From the UHGV virus genome UHGV-0385297: 64,000 bases of DNA; one strand, 5' to 3'. Origin of the DNA: a virus. The notes under the pieces were generated by a model that was given only the letters and a program-made list of their open reading frames with translations, was not told where the DNA came from and made no database searches. Within the stretch, counting starts at the first letter, position 1. The number at the start of each line of letters is the position of its first letter. The position numbers were made by a program, and so were the translations under genes. Below, piece by piece: positions 4,040-58,569 of the stretch.

Positions 4040-4390
4040 TTACTTATTTTCCTCTTCCTGTTTAGGAAGAAGTTTATCTACAGCTTTATCTAGCTGCTGT
4101 TTTCCATAAGATTCAATGCTCTCAAATGCACGATCTACAATCTGAGAGATCATTTCAACAGTAAAAATAGGACGCATATATACAGGCACAAAAGCATATA
4201 GTTTTTCCACTACATACTCATGTTTCATGCCACCGGCTTTTATTGTATCCTTATATACAGACTCAGCTTCTGAGATATAATCGCCAGCAACTTCTTTTAA
4301 CCTGGAATTCGTCCTAAAATAAAGGCTCAGACCGCCAAGGATAACCCATACGACAATCTGAGCAATTTGAATAATTGTATTAATATCCAT
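4040..4390 (-). CDS. Membrane-anchored hypothetical protein
   Basis: It has a hydrophobic N-terminal helix (IIQIAQIVVWVILGGLSLYF) and is tightly packed in the operon. Confidence 0.5.
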   Translation of the reverse strand: MDINTIIQIAQIVVWVILGGLSLYFRTNSRLKEVAGDYISEAESVYKDTIKAGGMKHEYVVEKLYAFVPVYMRPIFTVEMISQIVDRAFESIESYGKQQLDKAVDKLLPKQEEENK

Positions 4391-4405
4391 AATATTTTCC
4401 TCGAA

Positions 4406-5020
4406 TTAATAACCGAGAAGCTTTAGAAAATCCTTCATCTGTTTTTCAGATAACTTTTCAGAAGTGTAGAATGTATGACTGGTATACTTACCATCTTCAG
4501 ACTTACTTACGGTAAATCCATGAATATCATCATCTTCGTCAGTTTCTACATCCAGATTCATTTCACCGTCATGTAGCTCTGCACAATCTTCACAGTTTCC
4601 ATCACATTCATCTGTAAGACCAAATAGAATAACTTCCTTCTCAAGGTCTTTACATTCTTCAATCACGTCCTGAGAGACGGAACCGTCCATATCAATGTAG
4701 AAAATATCTGCATCATACAGATCACCGTAATCATCCAGTGGGATGACAGTTACATAACCTTCGTCAGTTACGCTTAACATATATTCAATATCTGGATCGT
4801 CATCAGTAAGATCAACCCTCCAAATACTGGTTTCATCCAGATCCATAACCTCGTCAAAAATGTATTCGACCAGATCTCTGCCCGCGATCAGAGCTACAGT
4901 TTTATCTGTATGATATAAATGATGAATGAACTTATATGCTAATTCTGTGTAGTCATAAACAGTGATAATGTTTAAATTTTCTTTAACTTCAGGTGTTTTA
5001 TTTTCAGTTACCTTTTTCAT
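4406..5020 (-). CDS. Highly acidic hypothetical protein (possible DNA mimic)
   Basis: D/E-rich runs such as LDVETDEDDDIHGF and DLTDDDPDIEY suggest an anti-restriction-type mimic; this is inference only. Confidence 0.5.
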   Translation of the reverse strand: MKKVTENKTPEVKENLNIITVYDYTELAYKFIHHLYHTDKTVALIAGRDLVEYIFDEVMDLDETSIWRVDLTDDDPDIEYMLSVTDEGYVTVIPLDDYGDLYDADIFYIDMDGSVSQDVIEECKDLEKEVILFGLTDECDGNCEDCAELHDGEMNLDVETDEDDDIHGFTVSKSEDGKYTSHTFYTSEKLSEKQMKDFLKLLGY

Positions 5021-5099
5021 TTAAACGTATTTTCCTTTCATTCCTTATGTCGGATGCAATATGTACTATTTATTTTTTCTGGGATGGGAGAGTGTTAAA

Positions 5100-5399
5100 T
5101 TAAGCACCCTTTACAGCATCCTTTAAAGCGGAGCCAGCCTTAAACTTAACAGTCTTAGTAGCTGCAATTTCAATCTCTTCACCAGTAGCAGGATTTCTAC
5201 CAATTCTTGCAGGTCTTTCTGCTACATCAAAGCTACCAAAGCCGGTGATTGCAACCTTCTCACCCTTAACCAGTGCATCCTTAACTGCTTCAAAAACTGC
5301 ATCTACAAAAATAGTAGTATCCTTTAAAGAAATCTTTGCATACTTCTCGTCCTGTACTGCAATTGTCTGTACGTTCTTTACTAATTCGGTCTTGTTCAT
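5100..5399 (-). CDS. hup: HU/IHF-family DNA-binding protein
   Basis: The sequence MNKTELVKNV...GFGSFDVAERPARIGRNPATGEEIEIAATKTVKFKAGSALKDAV follows the canonical HU arm motif. An AAAAAGGAG RBS is present. Confidence 0.85.
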   Translation of the reverse strand: MNKTELVKNVQTIAVQDEKYAKISLKDTTIFVDAVFEAVKDALVKGEKVAITGFGSFDVAERPARIGRNPATGEEIEIAATKTVKFKAGSALKDAVKGA

Positions 5400-5907: not shown

Positions 5908-7098
5908 TTATACAAGTTCAATAGGGTAGTAACAAGCTACTCCTTTTTGATTACAGATACATACCATCTGAGATGGTTTTCCAGATAATCTCTTCTCAAT
6001 AGTAAATTGATCACCTGAACCAGCTAAAGTACCACCTCGAATCATTTTTACTCCATTTGCTTCATCAACTGCACAAGTGTGCATGTGACCCATAATTAAG
6101 GCATATGGGAAATACCCAAGCATAGAGCAGAGATTATATGTACCTGCTTTAGAGAATGGGTCGTAGTCTCCGTGAACAACAGTGTAAAACTTTCCACGAA
6201 TATCCAAGTCTACAATACCTACATCCAAATTTCTCTTTAAAATATGGATATTAGATATATGCTGTAAAGATAAACCAACACCCCATGTAATAATGTCATC
6301 AAGACGTTCATCGTGTAATGCATCTTCCTTACGCTCAATCCTGGTATGATTCCCAACTACACTTGAAATAAATACATTTGAAAAATGTTTAGACAATTCA
6401 TAGCAGAAAGATGAAATAAGTTCGGTTGCAATCTTAATCTGTTCGATAACATTTTCTCTATTTGTTACCTGTAAACTTTTATGGATGGACCCTGAAATCA
6501 TATCTCCACATAAAACCACATAACATTTCTCTGAATTATGTAACTCCCTAATAGCAATTACTTCGTTCAGTAATTTATTAAGCCTTTCAGCGGCAATATT
6601 GGAATTGTATTCTCCCCAAACAGAATTAAAGCACTGTCCAATATGAAAATCACTTAAGACAATTAACATATCATTATCAGATGTAACATCTACTTTTTCA
6701 TGAGTCTCAAAATTAGTACGCCCAAGCTGAGAAAGTGTACTTTCCAGCAGGTCTAATTTATTTTCTACACGGGCATCAATATAATTCTGTCTCTGCCAAG
6801 CAGTTCGTTCATCTCTAAACTGAATTTTCTTTCGTTCTAGTTCACGGATCTGTTTATCCAACTCATTATTACGGTTTTCCTTAGAGAATACTTCTGTATT
6901 GAAATCTTTAGCATTGTTGTAACGCTTACGATAAGCACTCTCAGAGCGATAAACGGTTTCATCTTCCCTAAACGCCTTATTAATCAATGCAGCAATTTCG
7001 TCCCATGTCATATCTAAAAGGCCGTTTTCTTTTGCCTGTCCTAATCTCCAAATATACTGAAGTTCGGATTCTCCGTTTAATAAATCTGTATTAAACAA
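5908..7098 (-). CDS. Calcineurin-like metallophosphoesterase with an N-terminal coiled coil (SbcD/Mre11-like?)
   Basis: The motifs LSDFHIG, LCGDMISG, VGNHT and GHMH are preceded by a ~130-aa heptad-rich region. Confidence 0.6.
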   Translation of the reverse strand: MFNTDLLNGESELQYIWRLGQAKENGLLDMTWDEIAALINKAFREDETVYRSESAYRKRYNNAKDFNTEVFSKENRNNELDKQIRELERKKIQFRDERTAWQRQNYIDARVENKLDLLESTLSQLGRTNFETHEKVDVTSDNDMLIVLSDFHIGQCFNSVWGEYNSNIAAERLNKLLNEVIAIRELHNSEKCYVVLCGDMISGSIHKSLQVTNRENVIEQIKIATELISSFCYELSKHFSNVFISSVVGNHTRIERKEDALHDERLDDIITWGVGLSLQHISNIHILKRNLDVGIVDLDIRGKFYTVVHGDYDPFSKAGTYNLCSMLGYFPYALIMGHMHTCAVDEANGVKMIRGGTLAGSGDQFTIEKRLSGKPSQMVCICNQKGVACYYPIELV

Positions 7099-13668: not shown

Positions 13669-14532
13669 CTAAGCTTTTCTATTTGTGGTATTACGTTTTT
13701 CGTTATATTTTTTATATCTAATTAAATCATTTTTTCTCTTACACTCACCACAATACATTTTCTTATTTCCTGTTTTTTCAATCAGTGCGCCACATTGTTT
13801 ACAGCGAGTGTACTTATTATTGTGTCCACGCTTAACTCCATAATATTCTTTCTGATAATTTCGAATATAATAGGAAAGAGAACGATTTATGTACTTAACA
13901 TAGAAATGATCTTCAGTAATAAAATCAAAATTATTTACAAGCTTTGTCTTATCTTCATACTCGTCAATCAATTTACAATTGTCAAAACACTTTCTAAGAA
14001 AACCCTCAATTATGATTTTGTACTCGTTCCAGGAAAGGGTCATTTTTTCTTTCTGAAATCTTTCTTTCGTGGTTAAAGCTTTATCCATAATGTCATCTAT
14101 GACAGAAGTAGCATTTTCTTCGGTCATATCTACACCAGAAGCCCATTTGTAATACAATTGTTTTGGCTTTTTGAGCAAATCCATATATTCCTTATTTAGA
14201 ATTACTTCTTTATCAAAATATTTCGTATAAATATTATTTATTTTTTGCCTTATAATTGAACACCAATTTTGATTTTTGGAAACAGATTTATAGTATTTAT
14301 ATTCAATCATGGACCATGCATCAAATACTTGTCCAACTGGTGTTCCCAGTAAATTCTTTGCTACCTTAAATCGAATAGCTTTCTTATATGTTCTTCTTTT
14401 ATTTCCACATGACCAGATGGCGGAGCAGAACGAAGAGAAAACTTCGTCCTTTTGCTCCTGAGTCTGTAGTTCTTTGTATTTTTCTATAATTTCATATAGA
14501 AATGTTTCGTTACAGTCGTAAATATGTATCAC
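13669..14532 (-). CDS. Hypothetical protein with a C-terminal zinc ribbon
   Basis: It carries CKQCG...CGEC at the C-terminus. Its start overlaps the end of the polymerase gene by 23 nt. Confidence 0.5.
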   Translation of the reverse strand: MIHIYDCNETFLYEIIEKYKELQTQEQKDEVFSSFCSAIWSCGNKRRTYKKAIRFKVAKNLLGTPVGQVFDAWSMIEYKYYKSVSKNQNWCSIIRQKINNIYTKYFDKEVILNKEYMDLLKKPKQLYYKWASGVDMTEENATSVIDDIMDKALTTKERFQKEKMTLSWNEYKIIIEGFLRKCFDNCKLIDEYEDKTKLVNNFDFITEDHFYVKYINRSLSYYIRNYQKEYYGVKRGHNNKYTRCKQCGALIEKTGNKKMYCGECKRKNDLIRYKKYNEKRNTTNRKA

Positions 14533-17140
14533 CTACTTCAAATTCATAATATTTTCCAAGATATTCATAAGTATTATATGATTTGTATGGAACTTCTCGA
14601 ATAGAAATATTTCGCTTTGGATTAGTATTATTTTTTAAATTCTCAATAATATATTCTCCATAAGCAGCCCAAGCTAAAGATTTACTGATTGAAAGAGAAG
14701 AGTATGAAGTTGCAATAACATAATTGGCAATAACATCTTCGTCAAGTTTAAGTTTTTCAGAAATATTATCTTTATATTTCTTTACAACTTCGTCCATACT
14801 AAAATCATTATTTTCATCTTTATGTAAATTTAGATGCTGCTTTATTTCATCTGCATACATATTGATGAATTTCTTACACTCTTTAATGACTCCTTTATCT
14901 TTTAGATTAAGGTCATTGTTGACGATTAAGCATCTTGTATCTATAAGATCATTAACACTGTTATCCCATTTAATATTCTTTTTCTCCCATGTCTCGATGT
15001 ATTCACATAATTCATTCATAGGAGAAGGAGACCTATAGGCATTCAATTTTTCTTTCTCATCTGGTTCAACTCCCTTATTTTTACTAAGAATATTCTGATA
15101 CGTTTTCATTTTTTGAGGATAATTATGAAGCAAGAAATACGGTAGCTGTTTTAAATGTTTTCTCAGACCACTATTCATATGCCACCTAAAACCGGTTTTA
15201 AGAAAATCAATTTCTTTGCCCTGGAAAATTCTTAGAAGAGAAGAGGAATCAGAGTATAACTTCTGAATATCTGGATTTGTTGTATACCGATTCTCAATGC
15301 TTGTTGCTACATTGGTTATTTCACCAATACGGTTATCTCTTGTCATTACTTCATACTCAATTAAATTTTCTTTCGTATATGGTTTTGACTTTGCTGTAAC
15401 CTTATCTTCGACATCAAGAATAATATGTTTGTCAATTTTTGAACCAATAACAATTGGTTCGTTGCACAAAAAGAAAATATCCCCGTCAAAATCTGCCCCT
15501 CCCTGCTGCGGGGCAGATATATCATACATATTAAACATCACGACATCTTGATCTTTAAAATATCCGAACCATTTATTTAAAATGTCATTTCGCACAATTT
15601 GAATCTTGTTTACTTCAGATGGGTCCACAAGAGGAGATCTAAAAGAAGCACAATATCCTGGTTCAAAATTTGCAGTATATAATTCTCTTTCTTTTAAGCA
15701 ACCGACTGGATTTTCTCCGACTGCATATTGAAGATAACCAATCATATCACCAACACCTGTATGATAAAAACCAGAACAATAAATTTTTCCTACTTTTGCC
15801 TCATCAATGGATTTTTTTAATTTTCTATAAATAAACTGCTTTACTGCAGGATCCTTCAACATTACATCATTGATCAATGCTGCTTCGAGATATTTACTTT
15901 CTGGCTCATATCCATCTGTATCATTTATACCCATGAATTTGTAGGTATAAAATTTATCTCCTTTAATAATCTTCTCGAATAGGTTAGTAGTGTATTTTGC
16001 CAATTTGATGATTTTTCCATCATTGTCAGGATTTAAAACGTCATATTCTTTTCTATTTTTATCTACAAAACTATTGATGTATTTCTCATTCCATAGATCA
16101 AGACATTGTAAATACTGAAAATTCATTCTGGTGTACTTGTTTAAGTGCTTTACATGATGGCTATACTTACTAATACCTAATTTAAACTGATATTTCTGTA
16201 ATGTCTTCATATATTCAATCCATGCATCATTTCCATACTTTGATTTAAAAATCTTATGACCTTTAAACATTGAGATGTTCCAGATACAATCAATATCATC
16301 GATTTTATGCTCATATCCATAGATATCAGTAATAGTAGTGTATCCCCATTCCTTTAGAATTTGTTTAAATGGAACATATACGGAATATCCTTTTATAAAT
16401 GGCAGACGAACCTGGTTTCCAATAACGTCATAGCCTAAATCCAACTGTGTACTAACAGTTTTCATAAATTCTCTTTCATGACAACCACATCCATCAAAAG
16501 GAGATAATCCTATATCTCTTAAACCTTCTTCAATTTCTCTAACTTTATATTTTTTGGACTCACCAGTTTCTTTATCTACGAAAGTTTTTTCTTTTTCTAT
16601 GACATATTTGATAAGCTGATCATTTAAAGTTTTTTCATATTCACCGATGATAACAATATTTGGAATATAATCTTTAATGAGAGTACAGGAGCTAAACGGG
16701 AGACATCTTTGCGCTTCATATTTAGAAATAACGCACTCATCAATTTCAATATCCATTTGAGTGATCATGTATAATTCATCGAAAATTTCGTCACATACAA
16801 AAGCAGTAATACCGTCTTTTCCCTGAGATGCAGATTTTCCAAAACGAGAATAATGAGTACCGTTATACGTAAATCCATTATTAAGAATATCTCGCAGTGC
16901 GGTTTCTTGTTTTGGATTCTTTTTTGCGACTATAAGCATAAGCTCTTTAATATGTGTTGAAAATCTACCTCTTAGCCTTTGAATCTGATCAAACAATAAG
17001 GAATCACCTTGTTTAATAAGATATTCATTATCTATTTCTTCATTTTTACTTAGACTCAAATCATATTCTGAATCAATGAGTTTTTTGATTGGTAACTTAA
17101 CCAAAGTGTATTGAATTGATTTTATAATAAACACCACCAT
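14510..17140 (-). CDS. YonO-like single-subunit RNA polymerase candidate
   Basis: This 876-aa protein contains QQGGADFDGDIFF. ADFDGD is the invariant Mg-binding loop of multisubunit RNAP beta-prime and of the SPbeta-prophage YonO polymerase. Its size and its HU-like neighbour also fit YonO. Confidence 0.55.
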   Translation of the reverse strand: MVVFIIKSIQYTLVKLPIKKLIDSEYDLSLSKNEEIDNEYLIKQGDSLLFDQIQRLRGRFSTHIKELMLIVAKKNPKQETALRDILNNGFTYNGTHYSRFGKSASQGKDGITAFVCDEIFDELYMITQMDIEIDECVISKYEAQRCLPFSSCTLIKDYIPNIVIIGEYEKTLNDQLIKYVIEKEKTFVDKETGESKKYKVREIEEGLRDIGLSPFDGCGCHEREFMKTVSTQLDLGYDVIGNQVRLPFIKGYSVYVPFKQILKEWGYTTITDIYGYEHKIDDIDCIWNISMFKGHKIFKSKYGNDAWIEYMKTLQKYQFKLGISKYSHHVKHLNKYTRMNFQYLQCLDLWNEKYINSFVDKNRKEYDVLNPDNDGKIIKLAKYTTNLFEKIIKGDKFYTYKFMGINDTDGYEPESKYLEAALINDVMLKDPAVKQFIYRKLKKSIDEAKVGKIYCSGFYHTGVGDMIGYLQYAVGENPVGCLKERELYTANFEPGYCASFRSPLVDPSEVNKIQIVRNDILNKWFGYFKDQDVVMFNMYDISAPQQGGADFDGDIFFLCNEPIVIGSKIDKHIILDVEDKVTAKSKPYTKENLIEYEVMTRDNRIGEITNVATSIENRYTTNPDIQKLYSDSSSLLRIFQGKEIDFLKTGFRWHMNSGLRKHLKQLPYFLLHNYPQKMKTYQNILSKNKGVEPDEKEKLNAYRSPSPMNELCEYIETWEKKNIKWDNSVNDLIDTRCLIVNNDLNLKDKGVIKECKKFINMYADEIKQHLNLHKDENNDFSMDEVVKKYKDNISEKLKLDEDVIANYVIATSYSSLSISKSLAWAAYGEYIIENLKNNTNPKRNISIREVPYKSYNTYEYLGKYYEFEVGDTYLRL

Positions 17141-17860: not shown

Positions 17861-18643
17861 TTATATATTGTTATTCTCTAAAAGTTCTATTTGTTTTTCG
17901 ATTTCCTTATTGCAATCATAGGTTTGATCAATTACCTGGTTGCCATAACTGTCTTTCGTGAAATGTCTGTAATCTGCAAAAACTTTAGGTGTAGTAATAT
18001 ATTTTTCACGAGTTGAGGTGCTGTCTTTGATTCTCTTCATAGCTTTTGATTTTATAATTTCTAATGCATCTAAAATTTCTACTATCCTACCTACGTAACG
18101 TTCTGAAAGTCCTGTTTCATCTGAAATGGTTTTATAATGCCGGTAACAGCATAATGGGGATGTTGAAGATCTATTCATATTTAGACGGAGATAAGATAGA
18201 AGCAATAGAATATATGAAGAAGACATACGGATCGTGTCTACGGAAGTTCCTTCTAATTCTTCTTTAAAATTTAAAATTTTTTCAAGCTCATCGAAGTAAA
18301 TAATTCCAAAACGATCTGGTATATCAAATTTTTCAATATTAAGTTTTACCTGCAGGTATTTCACAGAATTAGTATGTTCTTTTAAACACTTTTCAAAGTC
18401 AGGAAACGTTTCAAAATAATTCTGGTCTGCAAGAAGTAGTAATGTATTATAATATTTCTGATTAATCTTTCCATCTCGGTAATTTGGCTTAAGTTTTGAC
18501 CAGTGGCATAATTCTGTAGTAGAAAATGCCACTGTGTCATCAAGAGAACGCCTTGCACATAAGTATGAAAAGATAATCACACGTTTATCCGATAGGGCAG
18601 TATCATATATAATTTCTTTTGGAATCTTCACATAATTAGGCAA
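17861..18643 (-). CDS. Hypothetical wHTH protein (possible replication organiser)
   Basis: The stretch ETGLSERYVGRIVEILDALEIIK looks like a winged helix-turn-helix; the function is inferred. Confidence 0.45.
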   Translation of the reverse strand: MPNYVKIPKEIIYDTALSDKRVIIFSYLCARRSLDDTVAFSTTELCHWSKLKPNYRDGKINQKYYNTLLLLADQNYFETFPDFEKCLKEHTNSVKYLQVKLNIEKFDIPDRFGIIYFDELEKILNFKEELEGTSVDTIRMSSSYILLLLSYLRLNMNRSSTSPLCCYRHYKTISDETGLSERYVGRIVEILDALEIIKSKAMKRIKDSTSTREKYITTPKVFADYRHFTKDSYGNQVIDQTYDCNKEIEKQIELLENNNI

Positions 18644-21985: not shown

Positions 21986-22849
21986 ATGAGAAGATCGTTA
22001 AAGGATTTGCGCGGTGTCGAAAAAGATTCATATAAAGGTTTGCCTGAAGAGCTGAGAGAGTTCAATTATTATATTCCTGATTGTGGCAATGTAATTATGG
22101 CTGTGCCTGAGTGTTTATTAGAGAAAGCAGAAGAAAACGGTGAACTGGATATGTTTGAGTGTCCGTTTCCTGTAAAGTATGTGTTGGAAAAAGGATATAG
22201 AATATATAAAAATCACGTTATTTGTGAAGGAAAGTATGATAAGTTTGTTGGATTGCAGGTTGAAGAGGATTATTATGAATATAATAGACCAAGTAAGAGT
22301 AGTGGCGGATCAATATATACAAATGCGTTGATTAATGCTCTCAAAGGTAAGGTCTTTCCATCTTATATAGGGATGTCAGAAGGCACATTATTTGATATGA
22401 GTGATACAGGAGCTACTTTGACCATGTTTATGTATGATCCTGAAAAAGATGAAATTGCACAGTTTGATAGGTCTAAACCAGTTGAGATTCGATTTGCTGC
22501 TATAAAAGATGTCATTATGATGACTATTAAATTGGGCAATTTAGAATGGTGGGAAGCACCATACAGTGTTCATTTAAGTAGGAATTTGACACGGATGCCG
22601 GTCATTGAAGATGGTAAGGGTATTAATCTTACTTTGATGTTAGTTAATATTAGAACTGGAAGAGTAGAAAATGTAAAAGTAGTACAGCTATCTACAGAAT
22701 TTAGTGTTGCGCTATGCAAGGCTATTGATAAGCAGAGATCTACGAAGTTCTCGAATACAATGTATAATATAAATATTGATCGGTTATATGATATGTATAC
22801 TGCGGATCAGCTGGCAGAAATGGGTACTGCAAGGTGTAAGATTGGTTAA
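21986..22849 (+). CDS. Hypothetical protein
   Basis: A 287-aa ORF with a GGAGGAG RBS. Confidence 0.55.
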   Translation: MRRSLKDLRGVEKDSYKGLPEELREFNYYIPDCGNVIMAVPECLLEKAEENGELDMFECPFPVKYVLEKGYRIYKNHVICEGKYDKFVGLQVEEDYYEYNRPSKSSGGSIYTNALINALKGKVFPSYIGMSEGTLFDMSDTGATLTMFMYDPEKDEIAQFDRSKPVEIRFAAIKDVIMMTIKLGNLEWWEAPYSVHLSRNLTRMPVIEDGKGINLTLMLVNIRTGRVENVKVVQLSTEFSVALCKAIDKQRSTKFSNTMYNINIDRLYDMYTADQLAEMGTARCKIG

Positions 22850-23340
22850 TGGTAGAGTGGATTTGTAGTATAGATATAATGGTAGATACGACAAGTTAAT
22901 AATCGGATACGTTAGAACGATCCCTGGGTAATGGTATGTTATGTACTGTTACTTGGGGATTTTTTGTTGTGTAATTGTGTTGGGATGGATCGGAATGGAT
23001 GAAGGGTATGTTTTGATGTGTTATGAGTTGAAAACATGGAATCGTAAATTCCCTTTAATATAATGAAGAAACACGTTTTAAGATTAGAATTTTAATTTTT
23101 GGGATGTTGCATTTTTTGAAATTTTGGTGCGATTTTTATTGAGATTGCGGGATTTTTACGATAAGGGGGCCGATAACAGTTTTTGAGGTGGTGACGAGGG
23201 GATTTTGGGCGTAGTTGTGGGGAAATGGAGTGTTGGGATTTGGAATGTAGATGGGAGAGGAGCGTGATACACCTGGATGAGTTGGAAGTGGTGGGTGATT
23301 TGGAAGAGATGTTCAAATTTTAATTTGAAAGTTTGATTTT
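22850..23340. other. GT-rich, nearly cytosine-free tract with no ORF
   Basis: About 490 bp of G/T runs (GGGATTTTT three times, GTGTTGGGAT twice, GGGG runs). The opposite strand is C/A-rich and G-poor. Confidence 0.7.
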
Positions 23341-23467
23341 GAACTTAGTGTGTAGATGAAACAGCTACCGGCTCTGGTGAAAACACTTTAGCACTTTAAA
23401 GTTTTAACCAGCCCCCATAAACAATAATAGTAATAATTACTGTTATTTTACACGGTTTTTTCCTATT

Positions 23468-23481
23468 TTACCGTAGCCGAA
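23468..23481. promoter_or_regulatory. LexA (Cheo/SOS) box CGAACATATGTTCT
   Basis: It matches the Bacillus-type consensus CGAACATATGTTCG at 13 of 14 positions. Confidence 0.6.
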
Positions 23482-23506
23482 CATATGTTCTGTTATTTGA
23501 TCCGAC

Positions 23507-23520
23507 TTCTGGCAATCGAA
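23507..23520. promoter_or_regulatory. LexA (Cheo/SOS) box CGAACATATGTTTG
   Basis: A 13 of 14 match to the consensus, 39 bp from the first box. Confidence 0.55.
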
Positions 23521-23662
23521 CATATGTTTGCTTATTGACTGTGAGCTATGATAGTTTTTTAAACTTTTACATGTAGTATTGATAACTACATGTAATGATA
23601 TTTAATACTATAAGAGGTAGTTCGACAGTGAAAAAATAATATCGAAAAAATTAAAATTGTTA

Positions 23663-23691
23663 TTGACAATCACACTATCATGTGATATATT
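23663..23691 (+). promoter_or_regulatory. Consensus promoter with a TCACA-N6-TGTGA operator in its spacer
   Basis: TTGACA, a 17-nt spacer (atcacactatcatgtga) and TATATT. Confidence 0.7.
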
Positions 23692-23763
23692 ATAGTCAAG
23701 TTCATAAAGAACGACAGCGGGAACGCTGTTATAGCACTTTTAAAAGTTTTTAGAAAAAAGTGC

Positions 23764-23792
23764 TTGACAATCACATGAACGTGTGATATAGT
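23764..23792 (+). promoter_or_regulatory. Second tandem promoter with the same operator
   Basis: TTGACA, a 17-nt spacer (atcacatgaacgtgtga) and TATAGT. Confidence 0.7.
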
Positions 23793-23799
23793 CATTAAT

Positions 23800-24400
23800 G
23801 TAAGAACAAAGTAGTTCAGTTCTTACAGCCGCTAAAATGCCCATGTGGGGCGGTGGCAAGTTCCTTGTCAATTTAATAGGAATAAAGCCCATGAATTGAA
23901 AAATTCACAGGCTTTAAAAGTTGGTTTGATAAACCAAACCGTAGCAAGTTCAGTTTATCATTCTATCTTTCATTTGTCAAGTCTGGCAAGTGTTTTCCTA
24001 TTAATCGGCTACCAGTGACGGCACTGGTGGACTTTGCGCAACGGTCAAGATAACAATACTGGATGCCCGCAAGAGTGTCTAGCGTTTACGCAAGTAAGCG
24101 CATTGTGAAAATACCCGTTGTGGGTACATTGAAAAATAAACAACTTATACAGTGTTTTATAAAGCGTTTGGCATTTTCAACAACGGGTGAATTCCCCGTT
24201 AAAATGTCCGTGTAGCGTATAAAAGCGTTACACTAGCAAGCTGGACTTAGCACGACTGCGGTTGTGAACGTGTTCGCATTTGCGCACTTAGCTTGCTACT
24301 GGTGAAAATCCCACACTAGGATTCTGAAATCTTGCCTAGTAGTGACCCGTAAGAAGGTAGGAAGTCGGTTTAAGGCTGAGAAGCATTTTGGACAATAAAT
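23800..24400 (+). ncRNA. Candidate large structured RNA or leader (GC-rich island, no ORF)
   Basis: GC is about 45-48% against roughly one-third in the flanks. Nested inverted repeats include AAAGCC..TGAATT..AATTCA..GGCTTT, GGTTTG..CAAACC, CCCGTTGT..ACAACGGG and TAGCAAGCT..AGCTTGCTA. It lies downstream of two strong promoters. Confidence 0.3.
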
Positions 24401-24538
24401 AAAATGATTGTAAGACGTGTCGTTATACATAGGTCAAGGGGCGGACTAGCACTACCAGTCTGTCCTTTGCTCGTGTGCATAACACGGCAACTACAAAAAA
24501 TAATTTTAATTCCGCAATGCGGAGAAAGAGGTATTTAT

Positions 24539-25339
24539 ATGAAGATTAACTTTTTAGCAAACTTTGAGAAAGTAACTATCAACGCTATTGTGCCAGCGGT
24601 ACAGTATGAGGCTAACCTGATGCTTCAGACTATGAATGATGAAGCAATCGCTAAACAGGATAAAATCATCTCTAATCAAAAAGGTGGTTACTCTGAGGAC
24701 GAAATTAAGGTAGCAAAGGACAAAAAGAGTAAACTGGAAGCCGCTAACGCTGAACTTGTAATTGCTAATGCTGAACTTGAGCCACGCTACAAGTCTACCC
24801 TGGAAGTAGTTACCAGTGCTAACAATGGTCATGTATCTAATGACCTTGTAGCGTTCCGTAACATTTTACGGCTTGTGGCATGCTCTGATAATAGCAAGTT
24901 TTTCCGCTATGCCATTATCACAGATGTCGATTTTTCAACGTTTTATGACCTGTTTGAAAAGTGCCATTCTATCGATGGTGACTTTGATGACAATGGTATG
25001 CGTGTATACCTTAATCAGGCTTGGAACACCCATAAAGACATCAAAGCTGAGATTGAAAAAATCCTTAAAAAAATGTTTTCACTCGTTGCTGACAGTGATT
25101 TAACCAAAAAAGTTACTATCAGATTTAACAAAACAGACCTTGGCATCTTACATGAGTGTTACGTCACAGGTCTGACCGTTTCTGCTAAAAAGGATAAAAA
25201 CGGTGAGGTAGTAGTGGGTGATTATAAATTTAGAACTGTAATCACTCGTAAGAAAGACAAGGATGGCAATGATAAGTTTGAAGGTGACAAGTTCAAAGAA
25301 CTCATTGCTAAAATTGCGTTTGGAAAACTGTATGCATAG
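24539..25339 (+). CDS. Hypothetical protein (first gene of the plus-strand block)
   Basis: An ATG with a GAGAAAGAGG RBS. The longer track ORF would start inside the structured region. Confidence 0.6.
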   Translation: MKINFLANFEKVTINAIVPAVQYEANLMLQTMNDEAIAKQDKIISNQKGGYSEDEIKVAKDKKSKLEAANAELVIANAELEPRYKSTLEVVTSANNGHVSNDLVAFRNILRLVACSDNSKFFRYAIITDVDFSTFYDLFEKCHSIDGDFDDNGMRVYLNQAWNTHKDIKAEIEKILKKMFSLVADSDLTKKVTIRFNKTDLGILHECYVTGLTVSAKKDKNGEVVVGDYKFRTVITRKKDKDGNDKFEGDKFKELIAKIAFGKLYA

Positions 25340-26710: not shown

Positions 26711-26866
26711 AGGCAGACCATGCTCTGCCAGCTCTGAGTTATGGAAACCGCTACGAGGTTCAGAGCAGACAACGGAATTTATTTCGGCTAATATCCATAG
26801 GTAACTTGTAAACCAGTATAAAAACCGTTATACTTGACTTATAAAAGTGAAAGGCGGTGGAAAGGA

Positions 26867-51954: not shown

Positions 51955-52668
51955 ATGTCTTGGTATGAAGGAAAGCACTCATGCGGTCATGAGGGTGGTA
52001 TAGAGCTTGTGGGCACAAAATCCTACAAGGAATGGAGGGCAAAACAGTATTTTTCCGATTTGTGTCCAGACTGCAAGCAAAAAGAAAAGAAAGAAAGAAA
52101 TAAAGAGATTGCAGAACAGTATGATATGCCCGATCTGAGCGGAACGGAAAAACAGATCGTCTGGGCAAATACAATAAGGGCAGATTTCCTGGACTATTGT
52201 GAAAAACACGAATTGGCGGCAGAATTCTTAATCAATACAAAAACTGATGCAAAGTTCTGGATTGATAATCGGGATCATATCTGTGATAAAGAGTTTGTGC
52301 TGTGTTATGAGGATATTTTGGAAAGAAAGCTACAAGCATCAAGATTTCTGCCGGAAGATACGATCATACCCACAAGCCAGAAATATTATGATACAGTAGA
52401 GATTACAGAGTATGTAGATTTAGGTGGTGTTGATCGATATATAAAGCTTTGCTACATGAAAAATAGCGATTTCATAAGCCTTGTTAAAAGTAGAGGATAT
52501 GAATGGAATCAGTACGTAGGAGGATGGTGTAAATCATTGCCAAAAATTGTAAAACATGATTTTGAAAATGAAGCGATTGAAATAGGCAAAATATTGTTAG
52601 ATAATAGGTTTTCTGTTTGCGTTCATGATGAGAATATAAAAGCAAAATTAGAATTGATTAGAGAATAA
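51955..52668 (+). CDS. Hypothetical protein
   Basis: RBS AAGAGGTAAAAT. A CPDC motif is present. Confidence 0.55.
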   Translation: MSWYEGKHSCGHEGGIELVGTKSYKEWRAKQYFSDLCPDCKQKEKKERNKEIAEQYDMPDLSGTEKQIVWANTIRADFLDYCEKHELAAEFLINTKTDAKFWIDNRDHICDKEFVLCYEDILERKLQASRFLPEDTIIPTSQKYYDTVEITEYVDLGGVDRYIKLCYMKNSDFISLVKSRGYEWNQYVGGWCKSLPKIVKHDFENEAIEIGKILLDNRFSVCVHDENIKAKLELIRE

Positions 52669-56182: not shown

Positions 56183-56194
56183 AGGAGAATGATT

Positions 56195-57196
56195 ATGGAA
56201 GAGAAAAGTAGATATGCAACAAAGAAAAAAGGTAAAACAGAAGTTCAGCCATTATGGAATATGGAAGATATTAAAGCGGTTATAGAATGGTTTGAGAAAA
56301 AAGAAGATTGGGATGGATATTTTATCACCATGTTAGAGCTTCTTCTTGGTAGACGTATTGGTGATACTATCTCTATGAAGTGGTCTGATCTGTATTATGA
56401 AAACGGAAAGAGAAAAGAAGCAATTAACACTATTGTAGAGCAGAAGACAGGTAAAGTCACTGAACTGCCAGTAAGTCATATGACATATGAAGCAATGGAT
56501 ATTTATTTGGACCATACCGGCATTAATCCAATGCAGCATTATGATGAGTTTATTTTTAAATATGAAGCGAAAACTGCATGGGTTCAGCGTTATGATAATC
56601 CTGTGTATGATAATACAGACATAGAAGAATGGTGCAGATTCTTAGGAAAGGATTTTACGGAAGATCGTAAACAGAAAATTTTAAAGGATTTTGAAAAGCA
56701 AAAGGAGTATAAAACATTAGGTGGTTATTTGTATTATGAAGTAGAATGGAATGACATTGTAAAGTGGCAGTCTGATGATTATAGGAAGAAACTAAAACAG
56801 GCTGCGAAAGCTATTGGTATCACAACTCCAGTCAGTACGCATAGCCTTCGGAAGTCGCTAGGATACTGGGTGTATAAAATGCATATGTTCGATCCTAACT
56901 GTTTGCTGACATTACAGAAGCTCTTTAATCATGCAGATCTTCAGACAACTATAATTTATATTGGTTTAGTGGAGGAACAGAAGAGAAGATATTTGGAAGA
57001 TCATGGAGAGTTCATTAAGAACGTCCTGGCTGGCAAGGGAGATGAAATCATCAAAAACATGCCGGTCATTTCATTAAAATCAAACGACTTTGGAAATGTA
57101 ATTATGAATGTTATCAAGGGAATGCAGGAAGGCAAAGAAGCAGTTGAGGTTTACCAGATTGCTATTAACATGGCAAATGAGAAGCGAATTGCGTAA
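56195..57196 (+). CDS. Tyrosine recombinase (second copy)
   Basis: R in LLGRRIGDTIS, then HSLRKSLG, then LQKLFNHADLQTTIIYI with the Tyr. RBS AAGGAG. Confidence 0.7.
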   Translation: MEEKSRYATKKKGKTEVQPLWNMEDIKAVIEWFEKKEDWDGYFITMLELLLGRRIGDTISMKWSDLYYENGKRKEAINTIVEQKTGKVTELPVSHMTYEAMDIYLDHTGINPMQHYDEFIFKYEAKTAWVQRYDNPVYDNTDIEEWCRFLGKDFTEDRKQKILKDFEKQKEYKTLGGYLYYEVEWNDIVKWQSDDYRKKLKQAAKAIGITTPVSTHSLRKSLGYWVYKMHMFDPNCLLTLQKLFNHADLQTTIIYIGLVEEQKRRYLEDHGEFIKNVLAGKGDEIIKNMPVISLKSNDFGNVIMNVIKGMQEGKEAVEVYQIAINMANEKRIA

Positions 57197-58540: not shown

Positions 58541-58569
58541 TTGACAGAACAAATGTTCGGCTATATAAT
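58541..58569 (+). promoter_or_regulatory. SOS-controlled promoter with a LexA box (AGAACAAATGTTCG) in its spacer
   Basis: TTGACA, 17 nt, TATAAT; the second box sits at 58546-58559. Confidence 0.55.

Follow-up and report, generated by a model that had tools for sequence, protein, structure and literature searches.

A conserved G-rich, C-poor tract abutting the predicted terminal-repeat/pac block of an SPbeta-like phage genome

The closest described counterpart of the locus analyzed here is the packaging (pac) region of the Bacillus phage SPbeta, a temperate phage that has long served as a model; the location of this region is already known. A pac-site fragment was placed between the genes yonR and yonP (Fink & Zahler 1982; Kohm et al., bioRxiv 10.1101/2021.11.22.469490), and the latter study puts the genome-opening point between the same two genes (bioRxiv 10.1101/2021.11.22.469490). 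According to its supplement, the fragment comprises 251 bp (GCTATGGG...AATCGAAG); packaging starts at position 251 and moves to the left (bioRxiv 10.1101/2021.11.22.469490 supplement). In the same source, the recognition sequence and machinery of SPbeta packaging are described as unidentified (Kohm et al., bioRxiv 10.1101/2021.11.22.469490). A second counterpart is the Psychrobacillus phage Perkons with a 264-bp short direct terminal repeat (DTR) mapped by PhageTerm (PMC13245101). Here, we describe the corresponding locus in a 64,000-nucleotide (nt) stretch of the UHGV virus genome UHGV-0385297, referred to at its full length as the window. The element in question is a G-rich, C-poor tract of the + strand, which a first-pass annotation had placed at positions 22850-23340. 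Judged by its gene content, the window belongs to a temperate, SPbeta-like phage whose RNA polymerase (RNAP) is of the YonO type.

The tract is well supported as a conserved sub-terminal element abutting the short terminal-repeat/pac block of SPbeta-like phages. The conserved element occupies 22962-23363 (a 384-nt tract with C 6.0%, G 31% and T 37% on the + strand), and its right edge is abrupt, the GC skew dropping from about +0.7 to -0.26 inside 100 nt. The comparison covered eight genomes: the window, the gut-phage contigs L033, L036, L046 and L037, SPbeta (locus L050), phi3T (locus L054) and Perkons. In all eight, the tract ends at the homologous motif GTGTG.AGATGA../GCT...GG, where the slash marks the boundary, with a skew of +0.4 to +0.9 for 400-500 nt to the left of the slash and about zero to the right, and an ACCCCC motif is found 45-65 nt inside the block. 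Left of this boundary, the seven genomes other than the window have 3.7-9% C and a skew of +0.4 to +0.9 over 400-500 nt. A G-rich, C-poor tract of 350-500 nt occupies the same place in four independent gut-phage lineages, SPbeta, phi3T and Perkons. For two of these genomes the position of the slash corresponds to a mapped feature. In Perkons (gtgtggatagatga/GCTTAGGG) it precedes the first base of the mapped 264-bp DTR, which begins with GCTTAGGG; over the 500 nt on its left, the skew is +0.6 to +0.86. In SPbeta (ggtgtggaaatggaagt/GCTATGGG) it precedes base 1 of the 251-bp pac fragment; the fragment corresponds to L050 6532-6782, its left edge coincides exactly with the right edge of the G-rich tract, and a G-rich, C-poor stretch of 340 nt with a skew of +0.5 to +0.77 adjoins it on the left (the SPbeta tract occupies 64189-64530 of the record). 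The 950-bp yonP-yonR intergenic region of SPbeta displays a skew spike of +0.5 to +0.66 and five TTACGAT/ATCGTAA motifs, closely followed on the right by ACCCCCATA; TTACGAT motifs lie at L050 6443-6462. The corresponding boundaries read agtgtgtagatgaaaca/GCTACCGG in the window, ggtgtggagatgaacta/GCTTAGAG in L033, ggtgtatagatgaatca/GCTATATG in L036 and gtgtgtggggagatta/GCTTACGG in L037. The boundary motif of the window (AGTGTGTAGATGAAACA/GCTACCGG, 23347-23371, + strand) is homologous to the edges of the Perkons DTR and the SPbeta pac fragment, which places the tract, indirectly, next to a terminase cut site or genome end; a DNA end is predicted between 23363 and 23364.

To the right of this position, a short terminal-repeat/pac block of about 285 bp is predicted at 23364-23648 from its left edge and the motif ..TTTTTAnnACCCCC.. 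common to SPbeta, phi3T and Perkons. Its right edge, near 23648, we infer only from the likeness of ATATCGAAA (23640-23648) to the SPbeta sequence ..GGAATCGAAG that closes the pac fragment. The predicted block contains GCCCCCATA (23411-23419), a hairpin ACGGT-N13-ACCGT, a second hairpin at 23567-23595 and two Cheo/LexA boxes (23478-23491 and 23517-23530), which are conserved in the gut lineages. A third Gram-positive LexA (Cheo) box of the same CGAACATATGTT type lies at 58541-58569 in the spacer of the consensus promoter TTGACAGAACAAATGTTCGGCTATATAAT. Right of the tract end (GTGTGnRGATGAA.nAGCT), the gut lineages share a succession of ..GTTTTTnnnACCCC.., a hairpin, Cheo/LexA boxes and tandem sigma-A promoters with operator palindromes. 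In the window, these tandem early promoters, P1 (23663-23691) and P2 (23764-23792), both on the + strand with 11/12 matches and an extended -10, are located immediately outside the predicted block and directed away from it. Their spacers carry ATCACA-N5/6-TGTGAT operator palindromes, and equivalent early promoters are present in L033, L036, L046 and L037. A different palindrome occupies the operator position in L021-L023, which suggests different immunity types. Further right, a strong leftward sigma-A promoter (TTGACA-17-TAAACT with TG, 23980-23952, - strand) is followed after about 30 nt by its own terminator (23916-23883). The same promoter/terminator unit occurs in L037 (4058-3968) and L033 (3438-3410), and it looks like a conserved antisense RNA of about 60-70 nt against the early-promoter leader. 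As a separate observation, about 180 nt directly to the right of the phi3T pac fragment (L054 4527-4700) are nearly G-free on the + strand, and the SPbeta version of this stretch is weaker.

The distant relatives were reached via homologues of the protein encoded downstream of the tract (44-48% identity), one of which is encoded on L033, where a gene-free region of 2.6 kb holds the equivalent tract. Viral and metagenome contigs were then scanned with a 20-nt leader motif common to the window and L033. Wherever the architecture was the same and the upstream DNA long enough (L036, L037, L045 and L046), a tract of 350-450 nt with 3.7-6% C and 26-32% G is present, and three contigs (L044, L047 and L038) have the leader motif with a different control region and no tract. 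The 21-nt form of this motif, TAAAATGCCCATGTGGGGCGG (window 23836-23857, L033 3797-3818, L044 2113-2133), is conserved in the early-transcript leaders of very different control regions, one with a classical XRE repressor, and corresponds to no Rfam family. Inside the tract, little sequence is kept in a multiple alignment except for TTTnnCGATAW-N6-CGATAA. The window version (23153-23179, + strand, TTTTTACGATAA-GGGGGC-CGATAACAG) comprises a CGATAA pair at 23159 and 23171, 12 bp apart. The CGAT(A) pair is the single intra-tract motif common to all eight genomes and is located at -72/-84 from the boundary in SPbeta and phi3T, at -177/-189 in Perkons, at -193/-205 in the window, at -205/-217 in L033, at -105/-117 in L036 and L046 and at -216/-228 in L037. 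The pair is a candidate protein-recognition site. CpG dinucleotides account for roughly one quarter to one half of the sparse C residues of the tracts, several of them in conserved CGAT motifs, and the number of k-mers shared among the tracts exceeds the null (7-mers, 34 vs 12.5; 8-mers, 9 vs 1.5).

Among close relatives, six IMG/VR contigs hold the tract at 87-93% identity. In the alignment, a core at 23053-23235 is nearly invariant, and the flanks 22963-23100 and 23238-23330 each occur in two diverged allelic versions, both of which stay C-poor; composition is thus conserved far more than sequence, the CGAT(A) pair being the main exception. The first-pass annotation had named absence from close relatives as grounds for dismissing the tract, and the conservation found here clearly favors a real element. 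Its left limit had to be moved. Positions 22850-22961 represent the 3' untranslated region and terminator of the gene 21986-22849, a rightward gene with its own intrinsic terminator (22919-22965, + strand), which the terminator scan detected as a long G.U-containing hairpin of 20 pairs (22919-22961) plus a T-run. This terminator sets the left limit of the tract in the window and lies outside the conserved element. The gene is absent from L022, L023, L036 and L046. L022 and L023 also lack the first (5') half of the terminator hairpin; in both, homology begins at about 22953, and the left neighbor is a different, leftward gene with its start codon a few tens of nt from the tract. The gene 21986-22849 is hence a recent insertion, and the tract belongs to the DNA on its right. 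Insertions between the tract and the leftward operon were found in the window, L001, L002 and phi3T. Since the small genes with a terminator in phi3T also lie between yonP and the tract, as in the window, the linkage of tract and block is confirmed; the tract travels with the right-hand block and not with the leftward operon, and it predates the gene 21986-22849. Anchoring the search on this gene proved a poor choice, as contigs L003-L020 share just a 99-residue domain with it in another context: the first 99 residues of its product recur as the C-terminal part of a 261-residue protein in these phage contigs of about 160 kb. The product also matches PHROG 12389, a group with no assigned function. 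In L022, an open reading frame (ORF) of 437 codons (4041-5354), possibly a mobile element, is inserted in the leader region between positions equivalent to about 23994 and 24006 of the window. Nucleotide searches of INPHARED phages, queried with the tract and its 24-kb surroundings, gave no match in either near or distant mode, and a 20-mer scan of GTDB genomes yielded three chance matches only, in unrelated metagenome-assembled genomes, and no host.

The region 22850-23340 contains 131 A, 32 C, 150 G and 178 T, corresponding to 6.5% C, 30.5% G and 36% T against whole-window means of 14.2%, 19.2% and 31.1%. In a ranking of every 490-nt segment across the 64 kb, it occupies the first place in G+T (0.667) and in GC skew (0.65), so the strong strand-compositional anomaly reported in the first-pass annotation was borne out. 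The accompanying wording "almost C-free" captures the depletion but overstates it, since the C minimum of 0.065 is tied near 52544 and 42407; the unique property is G enrichment combined with C depletion. For this reason a mutational by-product is unlikely, as cytosine deamination alone cannot give both. The strings quoted for the tract are present, GTGTTGGGAT twice (22977 and 23230) and GGGATTTTT at 22956 and 23149, as are GGGG runs at 22955, 23166, 23198 and 23219. The description as repeat-laden holds weakly: the repeat search returned solely two-copy families of 10-22 nt, and Tandem Repeats Finder detected no tandem array in the tract. Of the motifs counted against dinucleotide shuffles of the tract, only GGGATTT was enriched (3 observed, 0.5 expected), and GGA, GGG and TGG showed no excess. 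The tract contains no credible ORF, as had been stated; the longest is a TTG-initiated ORF of 74 codons on the minus strand, where, given the scarcity of G, long stretches free of stop codons are to be expected. Close relatives differ by 1-nt and 9-nt indels in the tract, and a hidden ORF was rejected as the putative peptides are unrelated between lineages and not conserved.

Taken together, the tract is most likely part of a packaging signal rather than an RNA element. More specifically, it may be a sub-terminal terminase-recognition array of the cosB/pac type, a reading to which we give an even chance. It is supported by the position beside mapped ends in relatives, the conserved composition, the conserved motifs and a homologous terminase module. 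The last was found via contigs carrying an exact copy of a window protein. Such a copy is present in the samples SRR17319335, ERZ28633435 and ERR14205097, and related lineages are found in SRR17241663 and the viromes underlying IMG 3300045988. Farther left, the contigs have genes for YonG_N and YonD_N proteins, a portal and a YonF-like terminase, and hence encode the cognate terminase type; in BLASTP comparisons with SPbeta, the terminase matches YonF (E 2e-12) and the YonG-like protein matches YonG (E 7e-16). In a prophage or concatemer, the tract would lie directly against the terminal-repeat/pac block cut by the terminase. If packaging proceeds as in SPbeta, it would start at the far edge of the block, pass through the block and enter the tract; given that direction, the tract would be the first unique DNA behind the first-packaged end, and it would also be the first DNA past the final, terminating cut. 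It could thus serve as a recognition and assembly platform for a YonG/YonF-type terminase, composed of one-way-oriented, G/T-rich short motifs (GGGATTTT and TGGGAGA) plus a specific CGATAA-12 bp-CGATAA site, and the single orientation of the motifs would account for both the strand asymmetry and the direction of packaging. The terminase of the window phage would then bind the tract and generate the same ends. Several points weigh against this reading. The mapped ends are those of Perkons and SPbeta, and those of the window and the gut relatives are predicted from sequence; likewise, the binding of terminase is a prediction for every member, SPbeta included. Kohm et al. locate the pac pattern inside the 250-bp block and not in the tract (bioRxiv 10.1101/2021.11.22.469490). 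The repeats are short and only mildly enriched, and the helical phasing of AA/TT is borderline. The ends of metagenomic contigs do not pile up at 23363/23364, one starting at 23053 and others near the promoters; as evidence for termini, contig ends were judged uninformative. The Enterocloster phage CB473P1 lacks the tract and Thomasclavelia TR-TP1 has a weak one, both with YonO-like RNAPs. Finally, a packaging model alone leaves the avoidance of C unexplained. The asymmetry itself might be the signal, in that 350-500 nt with nearly all G:C pairs oriented one way would program the strand-specific formation or use of the end. In that step, terminase might nick one strand, the repeat might be duplicated by strand displacement, or an annealing protein might be loaded onto a 3' tail that is rich in G/T and free of hairpins. 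This proposal is unlikely; if true, it would represent a compositional, not sequence-specific, cis-element for phage ends, conserved from Bacillus SPbeta to human-gut phages.

At the RNA level, the first-pass annotation had suggested a Rho-utilization (rut) platform for leftward transcripts, or an insulator between the isolated gene 21986-22849 and the early promoters. In such a model, C-rich, G-poor RNA initiated in the terminal block or control region and transcribed leftward through the tract would load Rho and be stopped before the RNAP/late operon, which would keep the prophage silent; we consider this improbable. The composition agrees with the proposal, since the minus-strand RNA has a C/G ratio of 5.2 over 384 nt (5.4-8.4 in the other gut lineages), with both C enrichment and G depletion conserved, and is nearly unstructured (minimum free energy -16.2 kcal/mol for 299 nt), thus exceeding the at least 80 nt of C-rich, G-poor, unstructured RNA typical of rut sites. 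In addition, LexA boxes and the leftward promoter with its terminator (23980-23883) are located to the right of the tract, and L037 has an intrinsic minus-strand terminator (3068-3043) at the left end of its tract. However, a leftward promoter feeding the tract was not found: no conserved sigma-A promoter of that orientation exists between the tract and the early promoters, and the one at 23980 is no obvious source of tract transcripts because its own terminator follows, the whole resembling a unit for a small RNA. The strong leftward promoter of SPbeta, P_yonP, is located on the gene side of the tract, between tract and yonP, and the operon transcript therefore does not include the tract. For the same reason, and because the window and phi3T have insertions at this place, a role as leader of the leftward operon was rejected. 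P_yonP is a sigma-A promoter controlled by MrpR, with an operator derived from its spacer, and a ChAP-seq peak is reported at yonP (PMC10516654). The SPBRE/MrpR operator so derived (..ACAAATACAAATAATATGTATA..) is located beyond the limits of the tract and has no relation to the CGATAA motif. Moreover, with 350-500 nt the tract is far longer than the roughly 80 nt that a rut site requires, and Rho loading does not explain why it stops exactly at a mapped DNA end. The insulator function is not supported by the history of the locus, the gene being a recent insertion and the tract older and linked to the right-hand block. Even less probable, at the RNA level, is a non-coding RNA gene with a GU-rich transcript from the + strand (e.g. 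a CsrA-type sponge) or a CA-rich one from the minus strand. The element is conserved and non-coding and has 17 GGA triplets in 379 nt, yet dinucleotide shuffles predict 14.5, no promoter occupies a conserved position on either strand, and sequence conservation outside the short motifs is poor; a CsrA/Rsm sponge was rejected on the lack of GGA enrichment and of a promoter. An Rfam scan of 22700-24700 (E<=10) returned nothing inside the tract and no match better than E = 0.9, and in folding, neither strand exceeded its shuffles in stability (z = -0.10 on the + strand, -1.16 on the - strand). We regard a non-coding RNA gene as very improbable.

Among DNA-level alternatives, the option of a replication or recombination site came closest, in that the tract abuts a packaging cut site by homology of the boundary motif; an iteron origin was not supported. 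As a strand-specific platform for DNA processing or recombination, the tract would provide, after resection beyond the repeat, a G/T-rich, C-poor and hairpin-free 3' tail for loading annealing or RecA-type proteins, and would aid either circularization via the repeats of 264-285 bp or, while concatemers are processed, the duplication of the repeat by strand displacement. In favor of this, the 3' end of the G-rich strand faces the terminal repeat in all eight genomes. In phi3T, the + strand of the other flank is G-free, which makes the strand ending 3' G-rich on either side of the block. The annotation of TR-TP1 includes exonucleases and a Sak4-like annealing protein, and the window has an exonuclease gene at 5908-7098. 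The mirror flank, however, is found in phi3T and weakly in SPbeta, and not in Perkons or the gut lineages; the Bacillus subtilis Chi sequence (AGCGG) is absent from the SPbeta and phi3T tracts, on which a Chi array was rejected, and the mechanism is entirely inferential. We hold such a platform to be distinctly unlikely, and an origin of replication, or a curved-DNA platform with the CGATAA pair and phased T-tracts as binding sites for an initiator or nucleoid protein, to be more doubtful still. In favor of the latter are the conserved CGAT(A) pair, an AA/TT period of 9.5-11.25 bp that reaches or approaches the 95th percentile of the shuffled controls for four of the five lineages, the location between divergent promoters and a weak DnaD/replication-initiator-like gene at 17861-18643. 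That gene is 4 kb away and unlinked to the tract in relatives, and neither iterons of 17-22 bp, nor a tandem array, nor an evident AT-rich unwinding element was found in the tract. An origin would explain neither the one-strand C depletion nor the coincidence with a DNA end. An iteron-type origin was hence rejected for want of repeats and of an adjacent initiator gene, and intrinsic curvature because the periodicity is borderline only. The origin, curved-DNA and non-coding RNA explanations thus find little support. A G-quadruplex-prone element, also proposed in the first-pass annotation, was dismissed: the canonical motif and an enrichment over shuffles occur in L033 alone, clusters of G-runs are absent from L036, L037 and L002 even under relaxed definitions, and the maximum G4Hunter score of L036 (0.84) is below that of its shuffles.

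Up to 21820, the genes of the window are directed leftward, and from 21986 on, rightward. Among the leftward genes are those for a YonO-like single-chain RNAP (14510-17140, Pfam RdRP 1e-13), anti-repressor-like proteins, a dCMP deaminase, PhoH, the exonuclease mentioned above and a tyrosine recombinase. In tblastn searches, the nearest phage records were Thomasclavelia TR-TP1/2, Enterocloster phages and the Bacillus SPbeta group. Two genes are tyrosine-recombinase-like (1283-2257, - strand, and 56189-57196, + strand). As the SPbeta master repressor MrpR has a recombinase fold (PMC10516654), one of the two could encode a repressor rather than an integrase. For the ORF 24404-25339 (+ strand), homologues of 266-273 residues cover 80-86%; its true start is probably near 24539, and the non-coding block would then extend to about 24538. 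A match to the Rfam HDV-F-prausnitzii ribozyme (RF02682) is located between early genes at 26731-26800 (+ strand), with 44.1 bits against a gathering score of 44.

Packaging signals that combine a cut site with adjacent recognition elements are known from other phages. In lambda (cosB) and SPP1 (pacL/pacR), arrays bound by the small terminase lie beside the cut site. Like these, the tract is non-coding and a few hundred bp long, and it would lie on the first-packaged side and has several short candidate recognition motifs; the lambda and SPP1 arrays also feature bent DNA and set the direction of packaging. They have no known strand-wide depletion of C, and in the window a repeat block of 250-285 bp would separate the tract from the initiating cut, with terminase binding a presumption. 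In T7 and T3, arrays of short, imperfect repeats (SRL/SRR, pacB) border the short exact terminal repeats and are implicated in concatemer processing; the phages and their terminases are unrelated, and this resemblance serves as a lead only. Rut sites such as lambda tR1 share with the tract a C-rich, G-poor and unstructured minus strand. The tract has four to five times their typical length and ends at a DNA end rather than in a termination zone. Perkons provides a closer comparison: its DTR starts at the homologous GCT..GGG, a G-rich, C-poor tract of 500 nt lies directly inside the right-hand repeat copy, and an operon with a YonO-like RNAP follows beyond. The ends are experimentally defined in Perkons and predicted in the window, and the two tracts share almost no sequence except the CGA-type pair and the boundary. 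In SPbeta, the published fragment is the 251-bp block itself, and the flanking G-rich tract is not described in the accessible part of that work; identity to the window is confined to short motifs, and LexA boxes are present within the block in the gut lineages and were not seen in the SPbeta fragment by inspection, without a formal scan. Nonetheless, the pac fragment shares with the window its position between a leftward yonP/yonO-type operon and rightward regulatory genes, homologous boundary (..GGTGTGGA.ATG.A../GCTATGGG) and ACCCCC motifs, and the G-rich, C-poor DNA immediately to its left, to which the window tract corresponds. As far as the available literature extends, the C-depleted flanking tract, its conservation from Bacillus to gut phages, the shared boundary motif and the CGATAA pair appear to be undescribed. 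The skew spike and the GTGTG.AGATGA/GCT boundary form a conserved landmark that is easy to recognize and by which the physical genome ends of uncultured gut relatives become predictable from sequence alone; a compositional outlier is thereby explained in annotation as a packaging feature of the DNA, not an RNA or a gene, the CGATAA pair is nominated as a candidate recognition site, and the orientation of the tract is given a testable role. Finally, the boundary links the 250-bp block of SPbeta to the mapped short DTR of Perkons, and this link suggests that short exact terminal repeats, and not simple headful packaging, may be employed in the SPbeta group.

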